Shown: positions 12,659 through 60,729 of the stretch, piece by piece
Position numbering within the stretch: position 1 is the stretch's first letter
Layout: each line of letters starts with the position of its first letter
Virus record (IMG/VR): IMGVR_UViG_2843675664_000001
Coordinates: 5,636 to 69,635 of that record
Strand: one strand, 5' to 3'
DNA from: a virus
Taxonomy: Duplodnaviria; Caudoviricetes
DNA: 64,000 bases
The notes under the pieces: generated by a model
What the model saw: the letters and a program-made list of their open reading frames with translations, nothing else
What the model was told of the DNA's origin: nothing
The model's database searches: none
Made by a program: the position numbers and the translations under genes

Positions 12659-13005
12659 TATCTAGCACACTCTTCATTTTGGAGAGTTGTGTGATTAGGG
12701 ACACCAGATATCCGTCGACCAAAACATCATCTGGTGTCCCTTTCTATATCAAATTTTGAGCAATCAAGGCCTGTGCGGGGTAATTGGTATAAAAAGCTCG
12801 GTCGCCAAACTTCTGCTTTTTATCTAATTAATTCCGCTTCTCTAATCTGGTGTAATCCCACTATTTTAATTCCCCCGAATTCGAGGGAATAAGTTTTTGA
12901 TATTTATCCAGAGTGCTTATTTGCATTGTGGTAATCCAACCATCCGGAATTACCGGATAGTTCACATATTCGGTTATTCCGAACAACTGAATTACGGAGT
13001 CGTTA

Positions 13006-16774: not shown

Positions 16775-17377
16775 ATGGCTAAAAGACCAGACTGGGAGGC
16801 CATCGAGTCGGCTTACAGGGCTGGCGTGATGTCACTCCGTGAAATTGCCTCACAACACGACATATCCGAGGGGGCGATAAGAAAGAGGGCAAAGCGTGAT
16901 GATTGGTCGCGTGACCTGAATGCGAAGATAAAAGCCAGGTCTGATGACATGGTACGCAAACAGGAGGTACGCAGGCAGGTACGCACAGAAACAACATTAT
17001 CAGAACGCGTACTTATCGAAGCCACCGCAGAGGTAATAACCAATGTTCGCATGGAGCATCGTGGCGATATCCGGCGGGCGCGTGAATTGGCTAACGTGCT
17101 GTTTGATGAACTGAGCGCAGAGTGTGCCGATGTGGCTGCACTGGAGAAACTCGGCGAGCTGATGATTGAGCCAGATGATAATGGGCGAGATAAGCTGAGC
17201 GAGATTTATCATGCTGTTATCTCTCTGCCTGAGCGCGTGAAGTCAGCCAAAGCGCTGAGCGAAACACTGAAGAACCTTATCGGTCTTGAGCGTCAGGCAT
17301 ATGGCCTTGATGACATGCAGCCGAATAAAACAGCCAGCCAGCTATCCGACCTGATGGACGAACTATCGAGCAAATAA
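16775..17377 (+). CDS. terS: Terminase small subunit
   Basis: MAKRPDWEAIESAYRAG HTH family; directly upstream of terL. Confidence 0.8.
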   Translation: MAKRPDWEAIESAYRAGVMSLREIASQHDISEGAIRKRAKRDDWSRDLNAKIKARSDDMVRKQEVRRQVRTETTLSERVLIEATAEVITNVRMEHRGDIRRARELANVLFDELSAECADVAALEKLGELMIEPDDNGRDKLSEIYHAVISLPERVKSAKALSETLKNLIGLERQAYGLDDMQPNKTASQLSDLMDELSSK

Positions 17378-44080: not shown

Positions 44081-44124
44081 CTTCTAAGCCGTAGGTCACA
44101 GGTTCGAATCCTGTAGGGGTACCA
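44081..44124 (+). tRNA. 3' fragment of tRNA-Arg(TCT): prophage attR and satellite attL
   Basis: CTTCTAA anticodon loop, GGTTCGAATCC T-arm, ACCA end; 5' half missing. Confidence 0.85.
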
Positions 44125-44289
44125 TTCTCAAGTATTTCAACGTCTACCATCGTCTCCTAAACCCCCATAGAATCAGCATTCAGTTATATTTTCAGTATCC
44201 TGTGGTCTACCCTCGTCTATTGAAATCTACATACAGAAGGGGGCATAATTGGTGGCATGCCCCCGTTCAATGAAATTCGGTGCCCCCAC

Positions 44290-45501
44290 ATGAAGCTGAC
44301 AGCCAGACAGGTAGAGACATCCAAACCTAAAGAAAAATCATATAAACTTTCTGATGGCGGGGGCATGTATTTAGAAGTCGCGCCTAACGGATCAAAATAC
44401 TGGAGAATGAAATATCGCTACGCCGGTAAAGAAAAAAGACTGGCGTTTGGTGTTTATCCGTCCATCACATTGGCGCAAGCCAGAGCAAAACGTGAAGAAG
44501 CAAAGCGGGTATTAGCCCAGGGGGATGATCCGGCACTGGTGAAAAAGGCTGAAAAGCGGGAAAGGGAATCTCTGGTTAATAACAGCTTTGAAAAAATCAC
44601 GCTGGAATGGCATGGGTATAAAAAGCCGAACTGGTCTCAGGGTTATGCTGAGGATCTGCTGGAAGCCTTTCAGAAAGATATATTCCCTCATATTGGCAAA
44701 GTCAGCATTACAGAGTTAAAGCCGCTGGATATGCTGGAGGTTCTGCGTAAGCTGGAAAAAAGAGGTGTGCTGGATAAGCTGAAAAAAATCCGCCAGGCAT
44801 GCAATCAGGTTTTCCGCTATGCAATCGTAACGGGGCGGGCTGAGTATAATCCCGCCTCTGAACTTGCAGGGGCTTTATCTGCACCAAAGTCAAAACACTT
44901 CCCTCATTTGAATGTGGATGAGTTACCTGATTTTTTACAGGCATTGTCAGCTTGTAGCGGCAGCAAAATAACGCTGATAGCCACGAAGCTACTCATGATA
45001 ACCGGGGTTCGCACCATCGAACTCAGAGCGGCAAAATGGAGCGAGATTGATTTTGATAAAGCCATTTGGGAGATCCCGGTCGAACGAATGAAAATGCGCC
45101 GTCCTCACATGGTTCCGCTATCATCTCAGGCACTGGAACTATTGCGTGAGATTGAAACAATAACCGGACGATTCAGTTATATTTTCCACGGTCGGAATGA
45201 TGCTTCAAAACCGATGAGTGAAGCGGCAATCAACCAGGTACTGAAAAGGGTCGGGTATGATGGCAGAGCAACCGGTCACGGCTTCCGGCATACCATGAGT
45301 ACAATCCTGCACGAACAGGGTTATAACACCGCATGGATTGAGACACAGCTTGCACACGTAGATAAGAACTCAATCAGGGGCACATACAACCACGCACAGT
45401 ACATCGACGGACGCAGGGTAATGCTTCAGTGGTACGCGGACTATATGGACGCACTGGAGAACGGCGATAACGTTGTTCACGGTAATTTCAAACGGGCATA
45501 G
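44290..45501 (+). CDS. int: P4-type tyrosine integrase
   Basis: KLSDGGGMYL arm-binding domain; R...HGFR...LAH...YN catalytic residues. Confidence 0.95.
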   Translation: MKLTARQVETSKPKEKSYKLSDGGGMYLEVAPNGSKYWRMKYRYAGKEKRLAFGVYPSITLAQARAKREEAKRVLAQGDDPALVKKAEKRERESLVNNSFEKITLEWHGYKKPNWSQGYAEDLLEAFQKDIFPHIGKVSITELKPLDMLEVLRKLEKRGVLDKLKKIRQACNQVFRYAIVTGRAEYNPASELAGALSAPKSKHFPHLNVDELPDFLQALSACSGSKITLIATKLLMITGVRTIELRAAKWSEIDFDKAIWEIPVERMKMRRPHMVPLSSQALELLREIETITGRFSYIFHGRNDASKPMSEAAINQVLKRVGYDGRATGHGFRHTMSTILHEQGYNTAWIETQLAHVDKNSIRGTYNHAQYIDGRRVMLQWYADYMDALENGDNVVHGNFKRA

Positions 45502-45624
45502 TCCACCAGCAGCACACCGAACCAGCCAGAGTAAAGGCTGGTTTTTTATATCCGGAATACGTGAACTGGATAAATAGACAGGTGTAGTAGTCTTTAGTAG
45601 ACTGACGTAGACGATAAAGAATAA

Positions 45625-45680
45625 AGCTATGCCTAGGCTGATCCCCGAAAACCAGTACACCTCTACTGGCTGGCATAGCT
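45625..45680 (+). ncRNA. int-alpA-like RNA motif
   Basis: AGCTATGCC/GGCATAGCT stem enclosing TAGGCTGATCCCCGAAAA and CCAGTA/TACTGG hairpin; between int and alpA. Confidence 0.65.
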
Positions 45681-45708
45681 CCTATAAAAAGAGGGCGTGA
45701 GGTGGCGT

Positions 45709-46371
45709 ATGAGTGAACGGCAGTTCCATCTACTTGATTCTTTTGGGGAGTCAATAAAAAACAAAATTCTAAGAATTAAAGAAGAAGATGATATTATTTA
45801 TCAATCGGATGAGTTCGATGGTGTAATTAAAGGATTATTTTTTGATATTAAAGAACAATTACAAATAGCTACAAGCAATATATTTACCCCTGAAGAGCTG
45901 ATTATTACAGTTGAGCTAGAGAGTGCGCTTTCTGTTTTTTTAAATGATATACGAGAACAAAATATCATTGGCTATTTGTGCTTAAGCACCAAAAGTGTGT
46001 GTGACGAAATTGGATTGTCATTCCAAACATACGGCATGAGCATTTTTTGCTCTCTTTATTACATAATGAAAAAATTCGATCATATTTCTTATGAGTTTTT
46101 TTTGGTGGTTGTTCAACCGATATTGACGGCGATGAGACTGGAAGATGTCCCTAAAGAAATTGGGAAAATGGGAGGTCGCCCTGAACACCCAAGAAAAGAA
46201 GAAGCTCTTAAAACAGCAATGGAACGGTGGAGTAAAATACCCTACGCAAGCTTATCTAGTGTAGCAACATATGTTAAATCCAAGCTTGAAGAAAAATACA
46301 CAGATGCCCCTAAGTTGCCATCAATAAAGTCATGGTTGAATAAAGCAAATTTAAAGCCAGTAAAAAAATAA
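45709..46371 (+). CDS. Satellite hypothetical protein, C-terminal GGRP/HTH-like
   Basis: GAGG RBS; AT-rich ORF. Confidence 0.6.
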   Translation: MSERQFHLLDSFGESIKNKILRIKEEDDIIYQSDEFDGVIKGLFFDIKEQLQIATSNIFTPEELIITVELESALSVFLNDIREQNIIGYLCLSTKSVCDEIGLSFQTYGMSIFCSLYYIMKKFDHISYEFFLVVVQPILTAMRLEDVPKEIGKMGGRPEHPRKEEALKTAMERWSKIPYASLSSVATYVKSKLEEKYTDAPKLPSIKSWLNKANLKPVKK

Positions 46372-46374
46372 AAA

Positions 46375-46421
46375 ATATAAAGGGGTTTATATCTAAAAAT
46401 GGATATAAAGGGGTTTATATC
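46375..46421. promoter_or_regulatory. Tandem palindromic operator pair upstream of alpA
   Basis: ATATAAAGGGGTTTATATC at 46375 and 46403. Confidence 0.6.
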
Positions 46422-46512
46422 CATAACCGATTATATTTTCCTGATGCACAATCATTCCTGTAAACCTCACACCGTCTACTCAGGTGTTTAAAGGACTAAT
46501 ACAGGAGGCTAT

Positions 46513-46731
46513 ATGCCAGCAATTACTACGCAGAAAGAAAGTCTTATCCGTCTGCCGGAAGTTATCCGGCGTACAGGTTGCTCTAAACCGTGGCTGTACA
46601 AACTCATAGATGCCGGTCAATTCCCAAAACAGGTAAAAATCGGCTCCCGCTCTATCGCCTTTGTTGAATCAGAGGTTGATGCGTGGGTAGCGAATAAAAT
46701 CGCAGAATCCCGCACTGGTGAGGTGGTGTAA
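46513..46731 (+). CDS. alpA: AlpA family regulator/excisionase
   Basis: LIRLPEVIRRTG...FPKQVKIGSRSIAFVESEVDAW. Confidence 0.95.
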   Translation: MPAITTQKESLIRLPEVIRRTGCSKPWLYKLIDAGQFPKQVKIGSRSIAFVESEVDAWVANKIAESRTGEVV

Positions 46732-47126
46732 TGAAAATGAAAAACCACCCGTCACAGGTGGCTTCTGAGGATAGCTTCGCGTCATCTATCTTATCAAAGA
46801 ACCCGCCGAAAAAACACCGCGTCCGTTTATATATGATCGGTACTGGCATTAATGGCTTTACGGAAAATGAAATCTTATTCCATTGCCGTTTATCGTCCGG
46901 ACGCAATTACCCGAACGAACTCGAACGTAAGCTGAATATTGAACTGGAACGCCTTGATGAGCCTAACCCTGATGGTATTGGCTCACATTACCGCTATCGT
47001 TTTAAAACCTCTCAGGATGTGCAGAAGGTGATTAATTTAATCAACGATTGTGCAGAGCAGGGAAAGTATCAGCCGGTAAGCAAAGCACTCACAGATAATA
47101 TTTTAAGCCTGTACCCGACAGAATAA
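46731..47126 (+). CDS. Satellite hypothetical protein (possible winged helix)
   Basis: Coupled to alpA. Confidence 0.65.
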   Translation: MKMKNHPSQVASEDSFASSILSKNPPKKHRVRLYMIGTGINGFTENEILFHCRLSSGRNYPNELERKLNIELERLDEPNPDGIGSHYRYRFKTSQDVQKVINLINDCAEQGKYQPVSKALTDNILSLYPTE

Positions 47127-47139
47127 CGGAGTAATCAAA

Positions 47140-47829
47140 ATGGAAAAGAAAAATAACAGCTTAATTGCTGGCGGATTCGCTCACCCTGAAATCAGCTCGG
47201 AGACTATTTTAGTTCAGCACAAAACAGAGCCTAGAATTGATAGCCGCCTGTTTGCTAAACGCATCGGAATTAAACATAAGAACCTTTTTGAATTAGTAAA
47301 AAAGAATACAAAGAATTTACGTCAATTTGGAACCCTTCCGTTTCAAACGGAGCGATTAAATACCGAACAATTAGGTTCGCGTGAACATAAATACGCCTTA
47401 CTCAATGAAAGCCAATTTGATTTTATGTGCCGTATTGTTCGCGGTCGCGATCACGAAAAAATGACTCAGTTTAAGCTGGACGTTACCAAGGCATTCAGTA
47501 AGAAACGTGCCGCTGACCCTATCCGCCGTGAATACCTGCCGCATTATCATGAATCACGGGACGCACTCAGAGACTTAGGCGCAGAGAAATATCATTACAT
47601 CAACCTAGCCCGTACAGAGAACCGATTAACAGGGTTACTCACTGGCGAACGTGCCAGCGCAGACGAGCAACAATTAGGTTTATTAGTCTGTATGCAGAAA
47701 ATCGAACAGGCAGCATTTCAGGACGCGATTGATTCGGGTTTATCGGCTACTCAGGCATTGCGAGAGGTAAGTAAACGCATTGAGCAGTTCGCCAGCTTAA
47801 TGAGTCCTGCGGCACGGATTGGTGGCTAA
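47140..47829 (+). CDS. Rha family phage regulatory protein
   Basis: RIDSRLFA...HKNL...YALLNESQ...FKLDVTKAF. Confidence 0.8.
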   Translation: MEKKNNSLIAGGFAHPEISSETILVQHKTEPRIDSRLFAKRIGIKHKNLFELVKKNTKNLRQFGTLPFQTERLNTEQLGSREHKYALLNESQFDFMCRIVRGRDHEKMTQFKLDVTKAFSKKRAADPIRREYLPHYHESRDALRDLGAEKYHYINLARTENRLTGLLTGERASADEQQLGLLVCMQKIEQAAFQDAIDSGLSATQALREVSKRIEQFASLMSPAARIGG

Positions 47830-48719
47830 TATGATGACTATCGCCTCAGCAATGTTTGATACACCCAAATCGGCGTATCAAAGCACAAATATTAATCAAT
47901 TAACCTCGGTATTGGGGAATATTGCCAGCCAGGGGAAAGGCTCTCTCCTGGACGGCGGGGAGTCGGTTAAACTGGACACCCTCACGAATACTGTAACTTC
48001 AACTTACGGTATTACCGGCAATCAATCAGACAAACTTTCGTCCGGGCGTTCGGCTTTGACTCTAACTTCAGGTTATACCCAAAAGACCAGCGGCCACTCA
48101 GCCAATATTTTGGCTCAACACTCAGCAAAACTATTTGCTCAGTCATCGGCTAAGGGTTCAGCAGGTCAATCAGCGAAATTTTACGCCGGTCTCAAATATG
48201 AAACCCTGAGCTGTCCAAATCCGGATATCCCAAATCGTGGGGAAATTACACCATTTAAAGGTTTTATCGGGGTCACTACGCGGGGCGAAATTGAGTTTTG
48301 TCAGCCCATAAATGATAGGCGTGTAGAGTTTTCGGAGTCCATAAAAAAGGACTGTGTAGAGTTTTGCGAGTCCATAAAAAGTGATAGAGGCGTAGAGTTT
48401 TTAGAGTCCATAAAAAAGGGCAGCGTTTCCACCGCCCTTTGCGTGTTCGATATTAAATATCGAGCAAATCAGCCATTACAGATTAGTCAGCGGCTGAGTG
48501 GCGGCATATCGGATATTTCCGGGGAAGCCGAAAACTTTGATGATAATCACTTGTTTTTATCGTCAGATGTTCGTTATAGTGATCGGGCACCGGCAAAATC
48601 CGGTGCCAGGATTGAGACCCTGAATATACAAACGGCGACACATGACGCGCCTTGCGTCTTTTTTTGTGTCCGTGCCTACGCACACCTGCAAAATACGGTA
48701 TTATGCCGTCCTGATTCAA

Positions 48720-48797
48720 TGGTGGCGTTGGTGGGGCAGCCTTCGGGCTGGCTGGTTTCCGTTTGTGCCAGTAGTCTCAACCCTGTCAACGTCACCA
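48720..48797 (+). ncRNA. C4/CI-type antisense RNA
   Basis: Cloverleaf with TTCG loop; GTCTCAA and CCGTTTGT are complementary to TTGAGAC and ACAAACGG sites both upstream (48609-48635) and downstream (48808-48850). Confidence 0.85.
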
Positions 48798-48859
48798 CCC
48801 CTATAGAGATTGAGACCTCTGGTGGTGACTCCGCGTTAATACAAACGGAGATCATCGTT

Positions 48860-49048
48860 ATGATGGCTATCCCTGCCCAAACTCAATTCAAATTCCTGTT
48901 TCTGGCGGTAAAGCGCACAGACAGCACAGATATTCCGCACCGCATCGAAGCCACAGCACCAAACGAGCATAGCGCCCGCATGCTGCTGGTACGCGATTAC
49001 ATCCTCTCTTTTGCCGGACGTTTACCGATTCGTGAGGTGTCCGCATGA
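48860..49048 (+). CDS. icd: Icd-like host cell division inhibitor
   Basis: FKFLFLA...EHSARMLLVRDYILSFAGRLP; GGAG RBS just after C4. Confidence 0.8.
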   Translation: MMAIPAQTQFKFLFLAVKRTDSTDIPHRIEATAPNEHSARMLLVRDYILSFAGRLPIREVSA

Positions 49049-51102
49049 GCGCAAATATCACCTTGCAGCAGGCCGCTGAACAGGCTCACCAGCTAGAAAT
49101 TATCAGCCTGATGATTGAGTCCTACCCGCACAAATTCACAGATACTGACATTACGGTGCTTGCGTCACTGATGGTGAAATTATCCGGCGGTGTTTCAGGT
49201 TTCCTCAGTGAAAAATCCGCAGCACTGGAGGGCAAATCATGAGCCAGTCAGTCATTCCGTTGGATGTTGCCGCCTATAAAGCGCGGCAGGTCACATCACT
49301 GTATTCCGTCATTCTGGAGCAGGCATTGAAAGAATGCTCACCGGATTTGTTCGACCTCATTTCTATTGCCAGTGACATACATAGCGATATCAGTCAGTCA
49401 CTGACTCATAAAGCAGGAGACGACAAATGAAAACCATCAAATTATCGGAAGGTGACATGGTTCGGTTTCGGTCTGCTTTACATATCAGTGAGGAAATTAT
49501 CGCGCTGCTGCTTCCGGTGATGACCGCTGTAGAAAATGAGGCTGAACCCGATACACACCTGATGGTCAGGGCAATCAAACGCATTGCGGCTGAACAGTAT
49601 GAAAAATTGAGAGTGCTGGCGGAGGTGATGAAATGAATCCGGAACAAAAATACCAGATAAGGCAGTTACTGGAAGTCCCACAGATGAATGCTGCTCAGAT
49701 GATTACATTGCTGTCCGTCTGGCTGGATGCTGAACGCGACCCTGAAGTTGTCAATATGATATGTGTTGCGCTGAACGTTGCCAGAGAGATTGACAAATCC
49801 CTGTCGGTGGCTTTGGAGGGCAAGATATGAGCGAATACCGCACCGAAGTCACCGGCTCTGCCGTGGCTGTGATGAAACGCAACGCTTCCGGTAAATATCA
49901 GCGTATCGCCCTGATACCGCTGGCAGACATTCCCGCCCGTGCGGATGCCGGAGAGTGGGACAGCAATATGCTGCTGGGGTTACGTCTGATTGCGACATAT
50001 TTAGACCATGCACAGGGTGATAAAGCGAAAGATTTGCTCGCTTTCCGCTGGATGGTCGCCGTGCTGTATATCCGTGAAACCACCGCAAAGAACGGGATGC
50101 CTTACTACCGCAATCACGGGGTCATGCTGCCGCCCCTGCCGGACTGTGAACGGATAGCGATGGCGAATCATATCGAGGGCGCAATGACAGAACGCCACGG
50201 TTCAGACAACGCAGAGCACATCGTCAGCCTGTACGTTTCAATGATTGACGGCAGCGGCACGTTACGCCTGTCTGAGTGGGGCACTGACATTATGGACACC
50301 ATACACGGGGCAATAGCGCAGGACGTGGCAAGCGGTGTGCCGGAGCAGCCGGAACTGCGGACACACTGAGGACAAATAACATGGCACTAATCACAAAAAA
50401 CTTCCGTGTGAATGCGCTGGCCAATCTGTTTGCCGGGGCGGTTTATCACGATGTCACCACACGGAACGGCGGCGACTGGTTCCCGATGAATGTAGGCAAT
50501 AAAGCGATTGAGGTGGCGATTACCGACGGTGTGAAAGGCATCCGGATGCTGGTGGACAGCTATCTGCTGGAAGCCCTGCAACAACAATCCCGGGCGTGGG
50601 AACCGGCAGCGGTACAGGTACTGGAGCAGTGTACCGCGAACGGCTTTATCACCGGGTTCGGGCGCGAGATATGGCAGAGCATGATTAACGATATGGGCGA
50701 CACGCTGGCAGACAAAGGAGCATTTCAATGAGTAACGTGATCCCGTTCAGACAGAAAAATAACACGCTGGAGAATCTGACCCGCGATTTTGCTGCCGCAG
50801 TATACCGTTGTCACCATCATGACTACGAGGACAGTTACCGGCTGACGGAGACGCTGGGCGGTAATACCACCTGCCGCGACATCCCGCCGTCAGAATATAT
50901 CGTGCTGCTGACCGACTGGTATTTCATCGAACCACTGGCAGAGCAGGCGGACGACTACGAAGCGGCAGCAACGGACGCACTGACCCGTGCTGTAGATTCC
51001 GGACGTTTAACTCCGGCGGGGGAGGCGTTGTATCAGTCAATCCTCAGCATATCCCGTGATATGTCCGCACCGGAAGGAGGCGCAGACGATGAAATCCATT
51101 GA
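49045..51102 (+). CDS. Run of seven coupled small satellite ORFs (49045-49242, 49239-49430, 49427-49636, 49633-49830, 49827-50369, 50381-50731, 50728-51102)
   Basis: ATGA overlaps and RBSs; functions not recognisable. Confidence 0.65.
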
Positions 51103-53803
51103 TGTTATCCGTGAGGTGAAACTGAAAGCCAACGGGCAATGGCAGGGCATTCTGTCCGCTGTGGGTGCGGAGGTGCCGGTAAATACTCACACAGCCTGCC
51201 CGGGATGCGGCGGTAAAGACCGGTTCCGTTTTGATGATAAGGACGGTAACGGCACGTTTATCTGTAATCAGTGCGGCGCAGGTGACGGGTTAGACCTCGT
51301 TCAGCGTGTACTAGGCGTGGGTGTGACGGAGGCCGCGAAAGAAGTTGCAGGGATTATCGGTATTGATACCCGCTCAGACCATCAGCCCGCCAGAGAACGG
51401 ACTCAGGTTAATGCGCAGCAGGAGAGCCACAAAGCCGCGCAGCAGCAGAAAGAAGCCGGTGACGCAGCAGAGAAACAAAAACGCTTCACAGCGCGTTACA
51501 ACGGTCTGTTATCGCAGGTTCAGCAGGGAGAATCCGTTTATCTGACCGGTAAAGGGCTGACCGGCTTCACGCTGCCGTTACTGCCTGACGGGGCAATCCT
51601 GATCCCGCTGGTGAATGCGACCGGCACCGTCACCGGCGCACAGACCATTAAGCCGGACGGCGGGAAACGCCTGTTAACGGACAGCACGAAGAAAGGCAGT
51701 TATTACCCCGTCAATACGCCTGATAACGTTTCTGAGGTGATTATTGCTGAGGGGCTGGCAACCGCCCTGACGTGTCACTTAATCCGCCCTGATGCGCTGA
51801 CCGTGGCGGCAATAGATGCCGGGAACCTGATCCACGTTGCGAAGCACTTTCGAGACCAATACGCGCGCGCGACCCTCATTATTGCTGCCGATAATGACGC
51901 AGATAACACGATCAACACCGGCAGGGAAAAAGCAGAAGCGGCAGCACGGGCGGTTAACGGTCAGGTGACGATGCCGGCCACCAGCGGGGACTGGAACGAT
52001 ATGTATCAGGCTGAGGGGTTGGGTGCCGTGGTAAGCGCATTCACAGAGGGAATGTATCAGCAGGAGGATAGTGACAGCGGACAGGCACCGGAACCGGTAG
52101 AAAAGCCCGCCGCAGCCGACCAGATGAAGCCCCGGATTGAAACCCGTGATAACGGTGTCTTTCAGGTAATCCCGAAGCTGGATAAAGAAACCGGGGAAAT
52201 CATCAATAACGAGCAGTGGCTCAGTGACCCGCTGACGGTGGTGGCTGCGGGTGTTAACGATGTGAATGAGTCATTCCTGATAATGGACTGCGGCAGCGGC
52301 ACCACAAAGGCGATCCCGATGGCAGATATCGGTGAGCGTGAGGGCTGGCGGACACTGAAAGCCAGCGGCGTGATTGTCACCACCAAACCGGCGTTACGGG
52401 CAACACTGGCAGACTGGCTGATGCGCAGCAGGGGGCGGGATGTGTGGAGCGTGACCCATAAATCCGGCTGGCACAAAGGCGCGTATATCATGCCGGACGG
52501 CTCTGTTATCGGTGAGCCGGATAAGCCTGTGCTGTTTAACGGGCAGAGTGCGGCCGCAACTGCCTATCAGGTCAGCGGAACAGCGGAAAGCTGGCGGAAT
52601 GAGGTGGCACGGCTGGCGGAAGGCAATATCTTCATGATGTTTGCTGTCGGCGCAGCACTGGCAGCACCCATGACCGGGATCACAATGGCGGACAGCTTCG
52701 GTATTCACCTTTATGCCCAGTCCACCGCCGGTAAGAGCACCACGGCGGATATGGCGGTCAGTCTGTACGGGCATCCGGATTTACAGCGGCTGACATGGTA
52801 CGGCACCGCCTACGGTATCGCTAATGAGGCTGTAGCGCACAATGACGGGCTTTTATATCTGGATGAAGTCGGACAGGGCGCAGATCCGAAACATGTCTAT
52901 AAATCGGCGTACACGCTGTTTAACGGCAAGGGAAAGATTCAGGGAGCCAGAGACGGCGGTAACCGTCCGCTGGAGAGCTGGCGGACAGTGGCGATCAGCA
53001 CCGGTGAAAAAGATATCGAAACATTCCTGCTCAGTTCCGGCGTGAAAATTAATGCCGGGCAGTTAGTCCGGTTGCTTAATATCCCGGTTCAGCGGGCAAC
53101 GGAGCTTCACGGCTGCGAAACAGGTAAACACCATGCCGACACTATCAAAGTGAACTGCCGTTCTCATTATGGCGCAGCGGGACGCGGGTGGATCACCTGG
53201 CTTTCCGCGCACAAAGATGATGCAAAAACCGCTTACCGTGACGCACAAAAGCGGTGGAGCAAACTGATCCCGGATAACTACGGGGAGCAGGTTCACCGGG
53301 CAAGTGACCGTTTTGCTGCGGTTGAGGCAGCGTTACTGACCGGACGGGTGATCACCGGCTGGCGTGAGCAGGACTGCCGGGATGCGGTTCAGGCGGTATT
53401 CAATGTCTGGCTGGCAGAGTTCGGCACCGGCAACAAAGAAATTGAGCAGATAATCGGACAGGCGGAGGCATTCCTCAACGCACACGGACTGAGCCGGTTC
53501 GCACCACTGCCGTATGACTGCCGGGACATGCCAATCCGGGATTTGGCCGGGTACAGAAAGAAAGGGGATCACGACAATGACCCGATTGTCTTCTACACCT
53601 TTCCGGCGGCATTTGAGAAAGAAATCTCTCAGGGCGTGAATTACAAACAATTTGCCGAAGTGCTGAAAACAGCCGGAATGCTGATACCGCCGTCCAGCGG
53701 CAGAGGCTATCAGCGGAAAAGTCCGAGAATAGACGGGCGGCAGATTAACGTCTATGTGCTGCGGTTTATGCCGGAAACCTCAGACCCGGAGGATGAAAGT
53801 TAA
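51089..53803 (+). CDS. Primase-helicase (Zn finger, TOPRIM, DUF927)
   Basis: CPGCGGKDRFR, AEGLAT, AADND, STAGKST, LDE. Confidence 0.9.
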   Translation: MKSIDVIREVKLKANGQWQGILSAVGAEVPVNTHTACPGCGGKDRFRFDDKDGNGTFICNQCGAGDGLDLVQRVLGVGVTEAAKEVAGIIGIDTRSDHQPARERTQVNAQQESHKAAQQQKEAGDAAEKQKRFTARYNGLLSQVQQGESVYLTGKGLTGFTLPLLPDGAILIPLVNATGTVTGAQTIKPDGGKRLLTDSTKKGSYYPVNTPDNVSEVIIAEGLATALTCHLIRPDALTVAAIDAGNLIHVAKHFRDQYARATLIIAADNDADNTINTGREKAEAAARAVNGQVTMPATSGDWNDMYQAEGLGAVVSAFTEGMYQQEDSDSGQAPEPVEKPAAADQMKPRIETRDNGVFQVIPKLDKETGEIINNEQWLSDPLTVVAAGVNDVNESFLIMDCGSGTTKAIPMADIGEREGWRTLKASGVIVTTKPALRATLADWLMRSRGRDVWSVTHKSGWHKGAYIMPDGSVIGEPDKPVLFNGQSAAATAYQVSGTAESWRNEVARLAEGNIFMMFAVGAALAAPMTGITMADSFGIHLYAQSTAGKSTTADMAVSLYGHPDLQRLTWYGTAYGIANEAVAHNDGLLYLDEVGQGADPKHVYKSAYTLFNGKGKIQGARDGGNRPLESWRTVAISTGEKDIETFLLSSGVKINAGQLVRLLNIPVQRATELHGCETGKHHADTIKVNCRSHYGAAGRGWITWLSAHKDDAKTAYRDAQKRWSKLIPDNYGEQVHRASDRFAAVEAALLTGRVITGWREQDCRDAVQAVFNVWLAEFGTGNKEIEQIIGQAEAFLNAHGLSRFAPLPYDCRDMPIRDLAGYRKKGDHDNDPIVFYTFPAAFEKEISQGVNYKQFAEVLKTAGMLIPPSSGRGYQRKSPRIDGRQINVYVLRFMPETSDPEDES

Positions 53804-53885
53804 TTTAGTGTTACTAAACCCCCCCGAAGCATCACCGGGGTGTATTCAGATAAAAAACGCTATACGTGAAAAACAGTGTTTTAGT

Positions 53886-54178
53886 GTTGGTTCAGTTGGT
53901 TCATTTAATAAGGTGTATTGATTTATAAGGAAAATAGTCTGTTTTCTGAACCAACACTGAACCAACAAAGGGCTGTTTTGAACCAACAAACGGGCATTTT
54001 GAACCAACACTGAAAATCAGCCGTTTCCCCTCTGGCTGGCAGTGACCGGAAAGAATGTTGGTTCAGTGCCGGAGTATGTTGGTTCAATCGGGGGCAATGT
54101 TGGTTCAGTATTTTGAAATAAATCATTTAAAAACAATCGTCTTTACAAATTGAACCAACTGAACCGACTGAACCGACA
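53886..54178. repeat. Satellite replication origin iterons (TGAACCAAC, both orientations)
   Basis: About 12 direct and inverted copies just after the primase gene, with AT-rich flanks. Confidence 0.85.
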
Positions 54179-54223
54179 CCTGATCGCGTATTTATATAAA
54201 AAAATAAAACGGGAGTAACGAAA

Positions 54224-54693
54224 GTGAGCAGAGAAATTCTCACCTTAAAGAAAAGCAACAAAGCTATAACAATTCAGACCGATACCAGCGCACCAAAAAG
54301 CGCACCGGATAAAACGCAGCAGGAAGCCCCACAGCAGCCGCAGAAGAAAAACAGGGCAGAGGCTCACGCGAAGAAGCGGAAACGCCGTACAGACCGGATA
54401 GCGCAGCACTGGCCGGTATTCACTTTACAGGGAGCCAGACCGCTGGCAATCGGCATACGGGAACAGATGATTGCGGAAGCTGAGGCGCGGGGCTGGATAT
54501 TACCGGCGGGCAAATAAAACAGGGAATACACGCTTACATTAACCGGAAGGTGTATCTTAGAACTCTCATGACGGGCGGCAATCGCTTTGATATGAACGGA
54601 CAGCCTAACGGTGAAATTACACCAGAGCAGGCAGATGCCGCTGAACAAAAGTTGCAGGGATGGCAACACACTAATAAGCAGGATGAATTATGA
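54224..54693 (+). CDS. ProQ/FinO domain protein, apparent -1 frameshift in G4 at 54489-54492
   Basis: PLAIGIRE then, in the shifted frame, YLRTL...RFDMNGQPNGEITPEQ; restored ORF ends in ATGA overlap with next gene. Confidence 0.75.
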
Positions 54694-54911
54694 AAATGAC
54701 CTACCGAACCGAAGGAGAGACGGATGTAATTGAACTGGAATATTCAATATTTGAGCTTGATAAAATTAAATATGCAATAGAATCAATCAGGCGAATAGCA
54801 GATGTTAAAATTGAAACAACCGGCTTTTTTCTGAAACGAATGAAAATTAAAGGTACCCCAGAACAGGTCAAAATAGCAGGAAAGGCATTAAGACGCAGAT
54901 ATCATCATTAA
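54690..54911 (+). CDS. Small hypothetical protein
   Basis: Coupled ORF, followed by hairpin at 54919-54939. Confidence 0.55.
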   Translation: MKMTYRTEGETDVIELEYSIFELDKIKYAIESIRRIADVKIETTGFFLKRMKIKGTPEQVKIAGKALRRRYHH

Positions 54912-55076
54912 TCAAAGTAGCCGGGGGATTCCCCCGGCTATCCCCTCATAGAAATAAAGAAACTAAAAATAAAAATAAATAGAAAATAATTCTCCAAAAC
55001 TATAGATATCATGGGGTGTTTGTTGCTTATTTATACAAATCAATTAAAATAACTGTATGTAAATACAGGAGGCACT

Positions 55077-55289
55077 ATGAGCAACAATAAACGGGATATG
55101 CATCCTATTCTTATCGAACTGGACTCAATCGAACGGGTTAAGCAGATACAAAAAGCCGCGCAATCCACCAGCCTTATCAGCCTGAATATCACAACGTCAG
55201 AATATATTCGCGGGTTACTGAATAAGGCGATTGAACAGGCAGAGAAATCACTGAATATCATGAGGGAGGGGAGCGCATGGCAACAATAA
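55077..55289 (+). CDS. Small putative DNA-binding protein upstream of TMP
   Basis: AGGAGG RBS; overlaps TMP start. Confidence 0.6.
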   Translation: MSNNKRDMHPILIELDSIERVKQIQKAAQSTSLISLNITTSEYIRGLLNKAIEQAEKSLNIMREGSAWQQ

Positions 55290-57679
55290 TTGATGCGCTG
55301 ATCGTATCGCTCAGGCTTGATAATAGTGGTTTCAGCAATGAAGCCAAAAAATCGACGGCAGAGAATAATAAATTATCGGCATCTGTTGAAAATGTCACTA
55401 ATGCGTCCGCAGATTTAACCATCACGATAAAAAACCTCGGTAACGAAACCAAAAAGGCGACGAAGAAGCAGGATGATTTCACGAAGTCTGTTAACGAAGG
55501 AGTGAAAGCTGTCGGTGCGCTTTTCTCGGCTATTCTGGTTTCTTCGGGGCTGGCGAAACTCATCTCTGAAGTTAACCGGGCAAATGACCAGCTTTATTTC
55601 CTGAGCAAAAACCTCGGCATGAGTGCCACTGAGATTAAAAAGTGGCAGAACATGGCTGAGATGTCCGGCGGCTCTGCGGATGGTATGGCGGCGAGCATGT
55701 CCAACCTCAGCAAATCGCTGTGGGATTTGGTCACTATCGGGGATTCCTCGGTGCTGCCGTATTTTAATGCGCTGAATGTCGGCGTGGTGGACTCAGGCGG
55801 TAAACTGCGCGACCTCGACGCTATCCTGCTGGATGTGGCCGACAGCCTCTCCGGTATGTCCCGCCCGCAGGCGTACAACATTGCGAAAAACATGGGCTTT
55901 GACGAGGGCACGATTAACACCCTGCTGCAAGGCCGTGACGCAATGCAGAAAATGCTGGACACGCAGCGCGGCCTGGTTATCTCCGGCGAGGAAGAACTGG
56001 AAATCAGCCGTCAGCTCAACAAACAGAATGCGAAGGTTCGGCAAGGCTGGGAGGGTCTGAAAACCCTGCTGGCAAACTACCTGATGCCGTCACTGCTGAA
56101 ATTCTCTGAGGTGATCACCGGTGTGCTGATGTTCCTGAACAAGAACAGAGACACGGCTGTAATGGTGTTTAAGGGCATCGGAATTGTGCTGGGCGTCCTG
56201 CTTATCCCGCTGGTGATAAAAGCCGCTGCGGCCTTTCTGGGGCTGTTTGCGTCAATCGGGCTGGTTCCCCTCGCTTTGTTTGCTCTCGGTGCAGGTCTCT
56301 GGCTGCTGTATGACGATTATAAAAAATGGAAAGAAGGCGGCGAATCACTGCTGGGTGAATATTGGGCTAAGTGGGATAAAACCATTACCTATATTCTGAT
56401 GAAGCTGGATCAGTTCGAAAGATGGTTCAAAGGAACCACTATCGGGCAATGGTTTACCGACCAGGAGGGAAACCTCAATAAACTGGAAGCAGCGTTTGCT
56501 GCGTTTGCCGCATACATTGCTACCAAGTGGGCGGCGAAAATGCTGAACGCATTCGGGCGGGTATCAAGGGGCGCAACCAAAGTCGGCAAAGGCTTAGGTA
56601 AAGGATTTATTGGCAAAGCTGGTGGAGTAGCAGCAGCGACATATGTTGCCTCTGATTTGGTTGATTATGCGCTGAATGAAGCTTTCGGTGGGTTTGACTG
56701 GTTCCAGCGGTTTAGAACAGCCCCAACGTGGGGATATGCAGGTAAAGCCATTATTGGTGAAGGGGATGCCCGCTGGGTGGATGGAGAGTGGGTTGATAAC
56801 CGCGGTAAGCAAAACGGAGCGCGCTTAACTGAAAACACACTGGATATACCGACCGGCGACCCTGAGAGAGATACACTTGCCGCCAAAGTGTCAAAAGGCG
56901 AATTAAGCCTGGACGAGGCTAATGATATCCTGATGAATGGTTATGATATTTCATCTGATACGGACGGTGAGGACGGCAGCGTTGCCAGAAATCATAGCGA
57001 GAGAGGCTTGCGCTATAACAGCCCGCTAAACCTTGCTTATGCTAATCAGCAGGGCGCAGATAATATCGGTGGCTGGGCTAAATTTGATACGGAATACAAC
57101 GGAATACGAGCCAGTGCAAACCAACTGAAGATGTATTATGACGGCACATCACGCGCCGCCGGTTATCAGAAACTGCAAACGGTGTGGGATATTATTCACA
57201 AATGGGCACCCAAAGGACACGGTAAAAATGATCCGGTCGCATACTCAAATACAGTGGCTTCCGGGATGGGGGTTGACGTTCATGATAAAATTAACCTGAA
57301 TGACCCGTCGGTGATGTATGACCTGATGAAAGAAATGTCCAAAATGGAAAATAAGGGGAAATTCCCGTATTCCAAAGGGCTGGTTATGTCTGCCATTAAT
57401 GGTACTGGTGATCCGGCTGTAGATCTGGCAAATAAAATCAATAGTTTTAATGACTTTGTTTCCAATCCCATTGCGCCGAACGCAGCCGCAGGAACCCGGC
57501 AAATTATGGCTAATTCACAGATGCTTCAGCCGGGAAACAAGACCGTTAATAACCGTGTTGAGGCTAATTTCGGAGATATTAATATCAACACCTCATCAGC
57601 GACAGTCAGCGGTAATGTGGCAGATGCGACCACATCCGCCCGCGAAAACATGTTCCAGCTGATCACACCGATGAGTTAA
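55277..57679 (+). CDS. Tape-measure-like protein with C-terminal lysozyme/transglycosylase-like domain
   Basis: MATIIDALIVSLRLD N-terminus, helical/TM middle, RGLRYNSPLNL...KFDTEYNG...IIHKWAP...NDPVAY. Confidence 0.75.
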   Translation: MATIIDALIVSLRLDNSGFSNEAKKSTAENNKLSASVENVTNASADLTITIKNLGNETKKATKKQDDFTKSVNEGVKAVGALFSAILVSSGLAKLISEVNRANDQLYFLSKNLGMSATEIKKWQNMAEMSGGSADGMAASMSNLSKSLWDLVTIGDSSVLPYFNALNVGVVDSGGKLRDLDAILLDVADSLSGMSRPQAYNIAKNMGFDEGTINTLLQGRDAMQKMLDTQRGLVISGEEELEISRQLNKQNAKVRQGWEGLKTLLANYLMPSLLKFSEVITGVLMFLNKNRDTAVMVFKGIGIVLGVLLIPLVIKAAAAFLGLFASIGLVPLALFALGAGLWLLYDDYKKWKEGGESLLGEYWAKWDKTITYILMKLDQFERWFKGTTIGQWFTDQEGNLNKLEAAFAAFAAYIATKWAAKMLNAFGRVSRGATKVGKGLGKGFIGKAGGVAAATYVASDLVDYALNEAFGGFDWFQRFRTAPTWGYAGKAIIGEGDARWVDGEWVDNRGKQNGARLTENTLDIPTGDPERDTLAAKVSKGELSLDEANDILMNGYDISSDTDGEDGSVARNHSERGLRYNSPLNLAYANQQGADNIGGWAKFDTEYNGIRASANQLKMYYDGTSRAAGYQKLQTVWDIIHKWAPKGHGKNDPVAYSNTVASGMGVDVHDKINLNDPSVMYDLMKEMSKMENKGKFPYSKGLVMSAINGTGDPAVDLANKINSFNDFVSNPIAPNAAAGTRQIMANSQMLQPGNKTVNNRVEANFGDININTSSATVSGNVADATTSARENMFQLITPMS

Positions 57680-57701
57680 ACGATAAAGGGCTCAAAGCCC
57701 T

Positions 57702-58058
57702 TTATTTACAAACGACAGGGGAAGATATCGGCTTGCCGGGACGTTCCGGTGAGCCGTCCTGACTAAATAAAAAATACCGATGCGTGATTATTCCGGTATC
57801 TCCTGAATGGTGGAGTTGAGATACTTTTCTATTCCCTTTAAATCCATAAAAAAGATATGAATCTACATTGCCATTTTTGTTAACTTTATGGCTGATAATT
57901 ACAATATTGGTAGGGACATCATTTACTCTGACTTCATTAATATAGTCATTTTCTTCAAATAGCTGAATGAAATCGGTACCACAAGTCATCGTCATAACAC
58001 TAGCGGTGGCCGCCAGTGGCAATACTGATAAAACCAGCACAATAAATTTTAATTTCAA
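57702..58058 (-). CDS. Secreted/periplasmic protein convergent with TMP
   Basis: Signal peptide KLKFIVLVLSVLPLAATA; shared hairpin at 57685-57703. Confidence 0.65.
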   Translation of the reverse strand: MKLKFIVLVLSVLPLAATASVMTMTCGTDFIQLFEENDYINEVRVNDVPTNIVIISHKVNKNGNVDSYLFYGFKGNRKVSQLHHSGDTGIITHRYFLFSQDGSPERPGKPISSPVVCK

Positions 58059-58144
58059 GGTGCTTCTCCTTTTTCCTGAAAGAGTTTACGGGTAATAGTA
58101 AATTAAAAAATGTACAAAGACAGCAATTGAAAGAGATAAAAGCT

Positions 58145-58336
58145 ATGCAGAAAAGCACAAAGAAACAGACTAACCGCTACTTTAACGGTACACCGACAAC
58201 ACGCCTGACAGTCACCTGTGAGCAGTCTGTTATTGACGCGGTAGACAGCCACATTAAGCGCAGCAGGCACATGCGGGGCAACCGTGCAGAGTTCGTCAGG
58301 CAGGCTATCATTGAGAAATTAGAGCGTGAACTCTGA
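58145..58336 (+). CDS. CopG/RHH protein
   Basis: RLTVT...NRAEFVRQAIIEKL. Confidence 0.75.
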   Translation: MQKSTKKQTNRYFNGTPTTRLTVTCEQSVIDAVDSHIKRSRHMRGNRAEFVRQAIIEKLEREL

Positions 58337-59084
58337 TGATTTAGACACCAGTACGCGCACGCGCGAGAGGCTGACAGCTTTGATGATTTTCGGACATGTT
58401 AGAAAGCCCGTGAAAGCGGGCTGAATAGCGACAAATACAGAGAGTAAATCCTAACAAATCCTAACGTTTTTCGGATATCGCAATACTAAGTTTTACTAAG
58501 TCTTATCGGCCCGAATCTTTGGAAATCTTAAGTAAAATGATAACAATTGATGCCGTTATCTGGCGTTTCTGACCCGGTACGGATGCTAACATTTGCTAAC
58601 GTTCCGGGTGATAAGGTTTGATAAGGTAAATACCTCCGCAGATCCCCGCCGCGCCTTAAAAAATCTATAAATGTTTCCGGTTCGCATGTATCGGAATGTA
58701 TCGGTATTGTGCGCGCTGAACTGCGCAAAACGAAACCCGAAAACTGTGCAGTGCGAACCACGGTAAAAGCCTTGTGTAACAATGGTTAACGTGATTTTTG
58801 CGCAAATATGGATGTATAGAAATGTTAAGGTCAAATTGCGAATTGCGGGCGGAGTGCGGAGTATGCTTAACATCAGAGTTGATACAAGTTTGATGATGAT
58901 TGGCACGTTTTGTTTTTGCTTTTTAACTAAATCCTAGTAGTTTAGTTTTTCTGGTTAGCCTAGTTATGTACGTATTGGTTATATCAATAAAAGGTGTATA
59001 CTTAACAATCAACTTATTAGATTAATACTGAAATTCAGACTAATGCTAATAAATTCAAATAACTAACTAGTGGTAATATTACGC

Positions 59085-59660
59085 ATGGGTCGCCAAATTC
59101 ACATTGGATACCATAATTGTCGTGATGAAGGTGGTTATGATTTCCTCCGTGAAAATGTTCCTTTTTTAAGCGGAGAGGGAGATAATCAGTGGCTGACTCA
59201 AGGCTACTACTTCTGGACAGATGATACCTACTGGGCTGAACGGTGGAATCAAGGGAAACAGGTAACAATAAGTAAGTTTACTATTACATTTCATGAAGAT
59301 GATGAGCTACTAGATTTAGTCGGCAACACTAGACAAATATGTGAATTTCAAAAAATGCGTACGCAAGTTGCGCAAAAATTAGACATTAAAGATGTGGGTA
59401 AAATTACGGTTTCTCAGGTGATCGCTTTTTTTAGAAAACTGAACAAGGAAACCAAATCTTCAGGAATTTTTCCCTATTTAGCAGTTAAAGCACAAGACGC
59501 TCCACATGATAGCAGGTTCCTCAAAATGCTATTTACCCGTTATCGGCGAGAGCATCTTTGTTTAGCCACTAGGCAGCAAATGTGCGTTTTTGCTCACGCG
59601 AAGGACAGAATTGATTTTAGCTGTTTCATGTCCCCAAAAGAGTACACTGAACAAAATTAG
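59085..59660 (+). CDS. ADP-ribosyltransferase-like toxin (CmdT-like)
   Basis: GYH...QWLTQGYYFW...LLDL...QMCV; first gene of TAC triplet. Confidence 0.65.
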   Translation: MGRQIHIGYHNCRDEGGYDFLRENVPFLSGEGDNQWLTQGYYFWTDDTYWAERWNQGKQVTISKFTITFHEDDELLDLVGNTRQICEFQKMRTQVAQKLDIKDVGKITVSQVIAFFRKLNKETKSSGIFPYLAVKAQDAPHDSRFLKMLFTRYRREHLCLATRQQMCVFAHAKDRIDFSCFMSPKEYTEQN

Positions 59661-59669
59661 GAGGAAATT

Positions 59670-59903
59670 ATGCTTTCCTTTGAAGAAAGAATGACTTTAT
59701 TAGAAGCGGCTCTCAGTGAGTATACTCCTGAGTCTCTTTTTGAAGAACTGTCTAAATTCCCAGCATATGGGAGATCTTTAGCTGCTCATGTAGTTGAAGT
59801 ATCTGAGCGAGTAACTGTCATCGAGCCTAGTAATCTCGATGCTCCTAGCAGAAGAAATATTATTTTTTCTTCAGAAACTTACGACATGGGTGAAGCAGCT
59901 TAG
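59670..59903 (+). CDS. Antitoxin (CmdA-like) with C-terminal AA degron-like end
   Basis: Lies between toxin and chaperone; ends YDMGEAA. Confidence 0.6.
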   Translation: MLSFEERMTLLEAALSEYTPESLFEELSKFPAYGRSLAAHVVEVSERVTVIEPSNLDAPSRRNIIFSSETYDMGEAA

Positions 59904-59905
59904 CA

Positions 59906-60307
59906 ATGAAGCTTTCATTGAAAGAAAATAAAGTAAACCAGCTAATTCTGGTTGATGCCGAAGACAATCAGACGTTAGATTCTGACTTTAGCTTAAGTTT
60001 TGAGCCGATTTTCTATGAGGAAGACGCTAGAAAATTCAAAATTGTGTTCGATTTTGAATATATAACTACAGATAGAAAATACTTAAGAATAGATTATCAG
60101 AGCTATTTTATTACTGATTCAGATATTAATGAAGCTTTTCGTAATTCTAAGTTTCCAGTAATCAATGCGCCGGCTATCGCATTCCCATTTTTAAGGGCTT
60201 TTTTGGCCAACTTACTTATTAGTGGAGGCCATCCGCCGGTGCTTCTTCCAAGTATAAACTTCCTTCATTACGCCCAAGAAAACATCTCTAAACCTGAAGT
60301 GTTTTAA
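59906..60307 (+). CDS. SecB-like chaperone (CmdC-like)
   Basis: INAPAIAFPFLRAFL...PPVLLPSINF. Confidence 0.85.
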   Translation: MKLSLKENKVNQLILVDAEDNQTLDSDFSLSFEPIFYEEDARKFKIVFDFEYITTDRKYLRIDYQSYFITDSDINEAFRNSKFPVINAPAIAFPFLRAFLANLLISGGHPPVLLPSINFLHYAQENISKPEVF

Positions 60308-60729
60308 ATGGATAGACCCATATCTCTGGGTCTTTGCTTTCTGCGCTTCCACGCAGAATAGATATCCTTGTCCCACGCTTTACCGGCCTTTGTCTGATAG
60401 CCAGCCTCGTTAATCCGTTCAGCAATGACACGCCCGTTATCCACCCCCTCAGACAGCACCTGATTCACCACAGCGACGATTGCCGGTTCATTGTAGGCAT
60501 GAGGCGGGATATCGGCTTTACCTGCAATCAGTGAAGCGGCGGCGGATTCCAGTCTTTCCACCAGCGTCAGCATACGGGCATCAGGACTCCCCTCTGGGCG
60601 GTTCAGCTTCTCTTTAATGGCTGAAGCTATCCATGATGTTTTATCGCTGCCGGAAGCCGTTACAGCGTCATTAAACACGGTCTGGAGTTCAGCGGGGAGA
60701 CGAAAGGCGACAAGGTTAGAATTGCTCAT
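60304..60729 (-). CDS. RHH + recombinase-like HTH DNA-binding protein
   Basis: VAFRLPAEL N-terminus; IAERINEAGYQTKAGKAW. Confidence 0.6.
   Translation of the reverse strand: MSNSNLVAFRLPAELQTVFNDAVTASGSDKTSWIASAIKEKLNRPEGSPDARMLTLVERLESAAASLIAGKADIPPHAYNEPAIVAVVNQVLSEGVDNGRVIAERINEAGYQTKAGKAWDKDIYSAWKRRKQRPRDMGLSI

Follow-up and report, generated by a model that had tools for sequence, protein, structure and literature searches.

The satellite PLE (phage-inducible chromosomal island-like element) of Vibrio cholerae carries a 14-bp mimic of the ICP1 pac site that is required for its transduction (PMC11417361, Nucleic Acids Res 2024). Here we describe a 64,000-nt stretch of an IMG/VR provirus record (hereafter the window), in which a prophage and a satellite stand in tandem and in which three non-coding arrays of the satellite, designated A, C and B, hold short phased repeats that recur inside small-terminase (terS) genes. 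On the basis of sequence comparison, we consider it reasonably likely that these repeats constitute a multi-specificity array of pac-site mimics in a satellite that lacks its own terminase, and they probably let the island be packaged by many helper phages. In both PLE, as characterized in that report, and this satellite, non-coding DNA includes a brief, exact copy of a sequence that is, or here would be, a packaging site of the helper. However, PLE has one site, one helper and its own packaging proteins, whereas the satellite described here has ~20 units related to several terS lineages and no terminase gene, and the originals of its units lie within terS coding sequence.

Other satellites, namely P4, SaPIbov5 and EcCICFT073, carry the cos site of their helper, and in P4 this site adjoins a variable or defence region. 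For such satellites, the term 'packaging sequence mimicry' is used in PMC11417361. These elements are packaged by a helper terminase via a copied cis site, as we propose for the arrays, but they carry the cos of one helper type, whereas no cos site was identified here. Phages themselves can hold their packaging signal within terS. The pac site of P22 is an example, although it lies outside the helix-coding segment of the gene. It is a 22-bp asymmetric site inside terS (review PMC9611059), and thus resembles the putative originals of our units in its placement within coding sequence; according to the same review, it belongs to a different TerS family, and the site is single and asymmetric where our units are phased doublets. 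In SPP1, the archetype of Terminase_2, the TerS-bound part of pac (pacL-pacC-pacR) overlaps the sequence coding for the TerS DNA-binding domain (PMC6316719). The doublets described below occupy this same segment of terS, a likeness of position, although the SPP1 site is a phage site whereas here there is a satellite array. The annotation of P4 (X51522) also lists 'ori type 2' 10-bp repeats and integrase arm 12-bp repeats, which are tandem and one helical turn apart like those of the arrays; unlike the arrays, they comprise one word for one protein and have no terS counterpart.

A full-text literature search, with subscription journals excluded, recovered no description of a multi-specificity array drawn from terS helix-coding sequence, nor of a co-varying doublet in terS itself. 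Copying of a helper's packaging site is already known; the multi-specificity array and the co-varying terS doublet appear to be new.

Phased doublets and their counterparts in small-terminase genes

Array A occupies an intergenic stretch (58337-59069) between a 69-aa ribbon-helix-helix (RHH) gene (58127-58336) and a 196-aa gene (59070-59660). A first-pass annotation, made from the letters of the window, had reported 10-bp-period repeats here, and every one was found where it had been placed. With a period of 10, these are AAATCCTAAC x2 at 58446, TACTAAGT x2 at 58484, TGCTAAC x2 at 58584, TGATAAGGT x2 at 58609 and ATGTATCGG x2 at 58686, along with a degenerate ATGTATAGAAATGTTAAGG at 58811 and the period-7 doublets AATTGCG x2 at 58834 and GCGGAGT x2 at 58849. 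Translation of the plus strand yields the peptides that the same annotation had named. Unit 1 (58445-58467, TCCTAAC x2, period 10) reads ILTNPN-V, unit 2 (58483-58505, TACTAAG x2, an exact doublet of period 10) reads ILSFTKS, unit 3 (58581-58603, TGCTAAC x2, period 10) reads MLTFANV, unit 4 (58606-58628, TGATAAG x2, period 10, also present in the related array L063) reads VIRFDKV, and unit 5 (58683-58705, TGTATCG x2, period 10) reads RMYRNVS. The degenerate unit ATGTATAGAAATGTTAAGGT (MYRNVK) opens the plus-strand stretch 58809-58862, which continues with the AATTGCG and GCGGAGT doublets and whose first part is kept in L063. At the left end, the GP3_package-type unit TGATGATTTTCGGACATGTTAGAAA (58381-58405, plus strand) reads FSDMLE and has a degenerate copy at 58334-58357.

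The doublets of array A are beyond chance. Five of the nine exact period-10 doublets of at least 7 nt in the whole window fall within its 733 bases, and at periods 10-12 its five doublets compare with a shuffle mean of 0.125, a count of five being reached in 0 of 2000 shuffles. The arrays are also larger than first reported. Region 60790-61740 holds 10 further doublets, where 0.13 are expected and 0 of 2000 shuffles reach 10, and includes a second array, C (60996-61268), and a third, B (61428-61600). In total, 15 of the 35 window doublets with periods 10-12 are located within 1684 bases (8.9 per kb, vs 0.32 per kb elsewhere). Array C includes the units TGTTGAC x2 (MLTNVD-I) and AACCTGTCA/AACCTGACA (NLSKPDI) with period 10 (61032-61078), GGTACGCA x2 with period 12 (61198-61221, reading LVRRLVR), and TACCGGACA x2 with period 11 (61243-61268), the last identified by the doublet scan. 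Array B consists of seven contiguous period-11 doublets (61428-61600), which read NNKVTTR, NGEITVR, KGEIRAR, NGKITVR, YGKITAR, NHKVTTK and YAKVTLR. All of these units are given on the plus strand.

The view that array A contains no credible open reading frame (ORF) was borne out, as its two longest frames (58586-58906, 58528-58782, minus strand) lack a Pfam match and related copies differ by insertions or deletions of whole repeat units. No RNA family was detected within the arrays by an Rfam scan, a scan for promoters and terminators gave nothing exceeding shuffles, and BLAST at E 1e-5 matched 58100-59000 to nothing among E. coli genomes, plasmids and phages.

The counterparts of these units are found in terS genes. 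An exact search of IMG/VR for the first doublet (TCCTAAC x2) returned 48 stretches, 15 of which are terS genes with identity over 22-23 nt (GAAATCCTAACAAATCCTAACGT, coding ...TARSCASEILTNPNV...), while eight are homologous satellite arrays and the remainder are unrelated, chiefly zinc-finger-like repeats of giant-virus contigs. The sequence AAATCCTAACAAATCCTAACGT lies inside Terminase_2 terS genes, where it codes for EILTNPNV, and the terS family bearing this peptide (ASEILTNPNV) corresponds to Pfam Terminase_2 (E 7.9e-22). Matches to Terminase_2 terS were likewise obtained for the TGCTAAC, TGATAAG, AACCTGTCA/AACCTGACA and ACGGCAAG doublets. For instance, 23/24 letters of unit 3 equal those in the terS genes of L085 and L093 (SRMLTFANV), and the TGATAAG half-site word of unit 4 is doubled in the terS of L083 (RMISFDKV). 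From array C, AACCTGTCAAAACCTGACATC is 100% identical over 21-22 nt to the terS genes of Cronobacter phage phiES15 and Bordetella phages IFTN8/9, in which the matched stretch codes for ENLSKPDI near codon 40, and the AACCTGTCA/AACCTGACA unit also matches terS genes of Morganella, Vibrio and Lactobacillus phages.

Array B gave a similar picture. The pattern ACGG[YR]AGATTACGG[YR]AGG occurs in at least 115 stretches. The 80 that were retrieved comprise 29 in non-coding doublet arrays and 51 inside ORFs of 120 aa or more with the reading ELL-N/D-NGKIT-A/V-R. Three ORFs of this NGKIT type belong to Terminase_2 (E 2e-26, 2.2e-28 and 1.9e-15), and the two halves of the site in NGKIT-type terS co-vary (GGCAAG, GGTAAG, GGTGAG, GGCGAG). 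Array B also matches the terS gene of a cyanophage.

The earlier proposal that the doublets spell Terminase_2 helix variants is upheld in its main point: it stands for ILTNPNV, RMLTFANV and the TGATAAG word, with the exception that no terS counterpart of ILSFTK, RMYRNVSV or MYRNVKV was found. FSDMLE, which had been listed with these variants, matches a gene of another family, since TTTTCGGACAYGTTAGAAA is found exactly in the GP3_package gene L274 of Xenorhabdus (...NSEFSDTLERI...; Pfam E 5.4e-29), and also in homologous arrays of Proteus and Providencia, at their left edge. The motifs TGCGCAAA and GCGGAGT, which had been compared with repeats of other terS genes, could be tied to no terS.

Because the terS matches end after 19-27 nt, the arrays are not one decayed gene, and continuous similarity to a single terS was not found. 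Six units equal terS-internal sequence over 19-24 nt and not beyond, and all six units with an identified terS counterpart (6/6) are in terS sense on the plus strand. By sequence comparison, one and the same helix position in differing terS lineages is the source of the units, which agrees with the initial suggestion that they form a collection of specificities, and the terS stretches that they match may be pac sites. A comparison with a phage collection (E <= 10) also indicates that the arrays do not match other loci equally well. Arrays C and B together matched 32 records, eight of which are annotated as terminase small subunit; a ninth represents the same Lactobacillus terS gene under a second record, and a single chance match to T4-like tail-fibre genes accounts for 17 others. 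Nine records were matched by array A, including one terS and one Streptococcus satellite. As a control, a 681-nt stretch of the island matched 63 records, with 0 terS among the 60 listed.

Co-variation within terS genes provides independent information on the doublets. A terS sample was assembled using a protein profile with search patterns located outside the doublet, and 80 loci were kept, of which 71 were parsed and nine without the anchor motif were dropped. The 71 genes carry 24 distinct 23-mers at the helix position, 11 of which have identical 7-nt halves. Nine half-site words are represented (TCCTAAC, TCTTAAC, TCCTAAG, TGCTAAC, TGATAAC, TGATAAG, TTGCGAC, TAGTAAC and TAGTAAG), five of which are found as doublets in satellite arrays. 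At an offset of 10, the halves share on average 6.2/7 letters, vs 0.8-2.0 at offsets 7-9, 11 and 12. An offset of 10 places the halves in different reading frames, and so a change of word alters unrelated residues jointly (I..P to M..A). The fact that the halves are read in differing frames and yet co-vary argues that selection acts on the DNA repeat. Moreover, 12 distinct stretches coding for SEILTNPNV exhibit one synonymous change over the seven doublet codons, whereas the flanking invariant residues use two to four codons each.

Variations on this arrangement were also observed. In the terS of Vibrio phage CP-T1 (L404), which is related to Terminase_2, a doublet is absent from the usual helix position, and CTGTAGCG x2 (period 10) lies one helix earlier, at nt 155 of the gene. 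Two metagenome contigs (L412 and L434) carry a TGCTAAG doublet and TTGCGCA x2, followed directly by a 127-aa ORF that includes the motif GNTNAVKHG. This ORF could be assigned to no Pfam or PHROG family; we presume that it resembles small terminases, and it may be a terS with its site upstream of the gene.

The resident prophage and the satellite

Bases 1 to ~44000 of the window form a siphovirus-like prophage with an HNH gene, terS and terL. This prophage is a likely helper, and its terS (16775-17377, plus strand; phrog_1206 terminase small subunit, E 2.3e-86) contains GGTACGCA at 16951, 16966 and 16978 (spacing 15, 12). Array C of the satellite carries this same word at 61201 and 61213 (spacing 12). 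Five copies of GGTACGCA are thus present in the window, where 1.58 are expected and 1 of 100 shuffles reaches five. In the related record G003, a homologous terS (78% identical) has GGTTGCCA at the same three places (23158, 23173 and 23185), and the satellite of that record has GGTTGCCA x3 at 67792, 67807 and 67819 with the same 15/12 spacing. No GGTTGCCA-type x3 cluster like that of G003 is present in our satellite. The word, the geometry of its copies and the neighbouring prophage change together, and no other argument for a role of the arrays with the helper's terminase is as strong.

When compared for common cos or pac sequences, array A and the resident prophage shared nothing but chance-level 11-14-mers. 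We also observed an 18-nt exact match, CACTCTGGATAAATATCA, between the satellite (61363-61380) and an intergenic region of the prophage (12898-12915, minus strand), a longer version of which is common to the satellite of record G001. This sequence could be a common regulatory site by which the satellite senses the phage.

The satellite spans 44104-63271 (plus strand, 19.2 kb) and is bounded by a 15-nt att core, TCGAATCCTGTAGGG, at 44104 and 63257, the left copy of which belongs to a tRNA 3' fragment. Prophage and satellite stand in tandem at one tRNA site; ARAGORN identified no intact tRNA in the window. Tandem GGGGGCAT doublets at 63181 (period 12) and ~44240 have the look of integrase arm-type sites. 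The element carries a P4-type integrase (44257-45501), an int-alpA RNA (45626-45694, Rfam), an AlpA-like gene (46513-46731) and a DUF927/Toprim primase-helicase (51056-53803), which is directly followed by origin-like iterons of the TGAACCAAC type (53886-54170). These iterons comprise GTTGGTTCA x2, CTGAACCAACA x2 and ACTGAACCG x2, a single word in both orientations, and the region is probably the replication origin of the satellite. The arrays are of a different nature, as an iteron origin has one word in several copies near its initiator, whereas each doublet of the arrays is a different word.

Regulators of Rha and Ash/Ant type are encoded as well, along with isrK and C4 RNAs. The only Rfam matches in the window are int-alpA, isrK, C4 and c4-a1b1. 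The isrK RNA, C4 antisense RNA and a1b1 target (48574-48802; Rfam E 4e-14, 2e-15 and 3e-8) lie within a 409-aa Ash-family frame (47819-49048), and therefore the true start of the protein gene is probably located after the RNAs.

No capsid or terminase gene and no head or packaging family was found in the satellite, save for an 800-aa protein that matches tape-measure/transglycosylase PHROGs, and a Terminase_2 gene was found in 0 of the 5 records searched, ours included. By its gene content, the element is a satellite resembling phage-inducible chromosomal islands (PICI-like), integrated in tandem with a prophage, because an integrase with att sites, AlpA and a replicon of its own are present in a small element that has no capsid or terminase gene. 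It is not P4-like sensu stricto, since psu, sid and delta gave no Pfam or PHROG match in the satellite. Induction and transfer by a helper are suggested by the adjacency of the prophage and the shared terS word.

Arrays A and C enclose a variable cargo slot. Here this slot holds three low-GC genes that form a complete PD-T4-9 defence system (A, B and C; 59070-60307, plus strand; PADLOC E 2.9e-94, 3e-36 and 2.2e-56), the C protein of which has a weak SecB-like region. RHH genes are located at 58127 and 60304. In related elements the slot holds other genes, such as an Abi-like 346-aa gene that adjoins the array in L015.

Related arrays share a frame and differ in the units that they contain, of which there are three in L020, five in L032 and six in L063, with breakpoints at unit edges. 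Contigs of two other organisms match 58399-61549 and then skip 46 nt, equivalent to the loss of two array B units; relative to the window, these contigs show 3 substitutions in array A vs ~35 in the gene that follows. Left of 58399 they do not resemble the window, which indicates that the RHH gene at 58127 lies outside the module, and relatives of this gene were limited to one partial match. Likewise, the 800-aa protein occurs at seven loci, none with the same downstream DNA, and thus the array is not tied to its neighbouring genes.

Arrays of the same kind are found in Proteus myxofaciens, in Providencia sp., in IMG/VR contigs of 8.7-20.7 kb and in many metagenome contigs. The Streptococcus suis satellite Javan574 (L403) carries TGCTAAG x2, TCCTAAC x2 and two more period-10 doublets in the intergenic region between its integrase and repressor genes (1520-1800), and its words are those of the Morganellaceae arrays. 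Several other repeat layouts were noted. Four metagenome contigs (L421, L442, L443 and L458) have four tandem copies of GGATGCTAAGGTTTGCTAAGGTTTGCTAAGGTTTGTTAAGG in an AT-rich island within GC-rich DNA, and L435 and L414 have 4-5 different doublets in succession. The FSDTLE-type sequence TTTTCGGACACGTTAGAAA is present as 2-3 tandem non-coding copies with a 24-nt period in L275 (a Kangiella metagenome-assembled genome), L277 (Psychrobacter) and L272 (Proteus).

Competing explanations for the arrays

Several observations weigh against the interpretation of the arrays as packaging-site mimics. Three words of array A (TACTAAG, TGTATCG and TGTATAG/TGTTAAG) have no terS counterpart among the sampled terS genes and IMG/VR matches, and all nine exact IMG/VR matches to TGTATCG lie in non-coding arrays of the 8.7-20.7-kb contigs, with none in terS. 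TGCTAAG, the commonest doublet of related arrays, is non-coding in 64/69 metagenome loci, often amid further doublets, and the remaining 5/69 are in long frames that are not terS-like; it was found in 0/401 genomes of the host order and in 0/2 array-bearing genomes. The GP3_package link is weaker, coming from one gene. Records G001 and G004 have GGTTGCCA repeats in the satellite, yet no P0002-like terS was found in these records. An HNH gene adjoining terS, as in the resident prophage, is typical of cos phages, and no cos cleavage site common to this prophage and the satellite was found, although a cos-type helper would need one. The label 'pac' is itself an analogy, taken from the position within terS and from SPP1, and the doublet-carrying phages have no mapped pac. 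Specific binding of TerS to pac is, in addition, described as hard to show in vitro (review PMC9611059).

Two explanations assign the arrays a function other than packaging. The arrays could titrate the TerS of a helper or misdirect terminase cutting, and so act in interference beside PD-T4-9. This decoy function draws on the same sequence evidence as packaging, and would fit with the location of the arrays on either side of a defence hotspot and with the blocking of helper packaging by satellites (reported in PMC11417361). We nevertheless judge it unlikely, because a single doublet per specificity makes a poor sponge, and because the uniform terS sense (6/6) and the match with the neighbouring prophage are better suited to productive packaging; the two functions are mutually compatible. 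Tandem 10-12-bp direct repeats are also typical of the sites of Cox, Xis, integrase arm-binding and RHH proteins. Thus, the units might be bound by some other DNA-binding protein that also acts within terS, such as a phage late regulator, an excisionase/Cox-like protein or the RHH proteins of the satellite, and might serve in sensing or regulation. In P4, a 10-bp repeat stands three times in tandem and the 12-bp integrase arm repeats are paired, our satellite has the integrase arm-like GGGGGCAT doublets and RHH genes at 58127 and 60304, and TGCTAAG doublets are nearly always non-coding. However, one or two regulators cannot read ~20 different words, these words follow the terS lineages of four families at the same helix position, and the RHH gene at 58127 is unlinked to the array in other strains, where similarity begins at 58399. 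This makes the second of these explanations quite unlikely in our estimation.

The arrays might instead have no function and represent debris, in the form of short tracts that gene conversion or recombination transferred from phage terS genes into a recombination-prone hotspot. Consistent with such an origin, they border the variable cargo slot and their units are gained and lost among relatives. We regard this as very improbable given that the 19-24-nt doublet alone is copied and its flanks never are, that the orientation is uniform, that unrelated satellites, from Morganellaceae to Streptococcus, have these words in common, and that array A has accumulated 3 differences in strains whose next gene has ~35. 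Finally, a P2/P4-type cos site centred at 58641-58657 was considered because, of the first 13 letters of the P2/P4 cohesive end, 12 are matched by the reverse complement there, GGCGCGGCGGGGA. This candidate is largely refuted and retains almost no probability: the rest of the 19-nt end and the conserved flanking hairpin are absent, the stretch is not kept in the homologous array of L014/L026, and the satellite has no psu, sid or delta match.

A proposed route to packaging by many helpers

If the arrays do serve as packaging-site mimics, then each unit, built of a 7-9-nt word that is present twice or, rarely, three times at intervals of one helical turn (10, 11 or 12 bp), would copy a site inside the terS of one helper-phage lineage. 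Once the satellite has excised and replicated, a pac-type phage that infects the cell or is induced there would supply its ring-shaped TerS, which would bind the unit that carries its own word, with neighbouring helix-turn-helix domains of the ring contacting successive turns of the DNA. TerS would then recruit TerL, and headful packaging would run rightwards through the satellite concatemer. The terS identity, the co-variation of the halves, the constraint at the nucleotide level and the word match with the neighbouring prophage are observed; binding by TerS, cleavage and packaging are inferred. The ~20 units of the arrays come from at least four terS groups, namely the ILTNPNV/ENLSKPDI type of Terminase_2, the NGKITxR type of Terminase_2, the resident phrog_1206 type and GP3_package, and consequently many phages could serve as helpers.

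A broader possibility, which we put forward tentatively, is that the doublets are true recognition words of TerS, written, in many phages, in the codons of its own DNA-binding helix. A mutation in the site would then alter its reader simultaneously, yielding a self-encoded and co-inherited code that would extend from Proteobacteria to Firmicutes and cyanophages, with satellites collecting its words.

How small terminases recognize viral DNA is still called unclear in a review of the subject (PMC9611059), and a paper on the PICMI (phage-inducible chromosomal minimalist island) satellites reports that no pac or cos site was found (PMC10803314). The phased doublet in the helix-coding part of terS offers a candidate recognition site, for which co-variation tables list nine words from one family and four from a second. 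The stocking of many such words would explain how a satellite can have a broad helper range without a packaging gene. If this is true, the content of an array predicts which phages move the island and its defence systems between strains. If the self-encoded code is also true, then both the helper range of satellites and the pac specificity of phages would be predictable from sequence alone.

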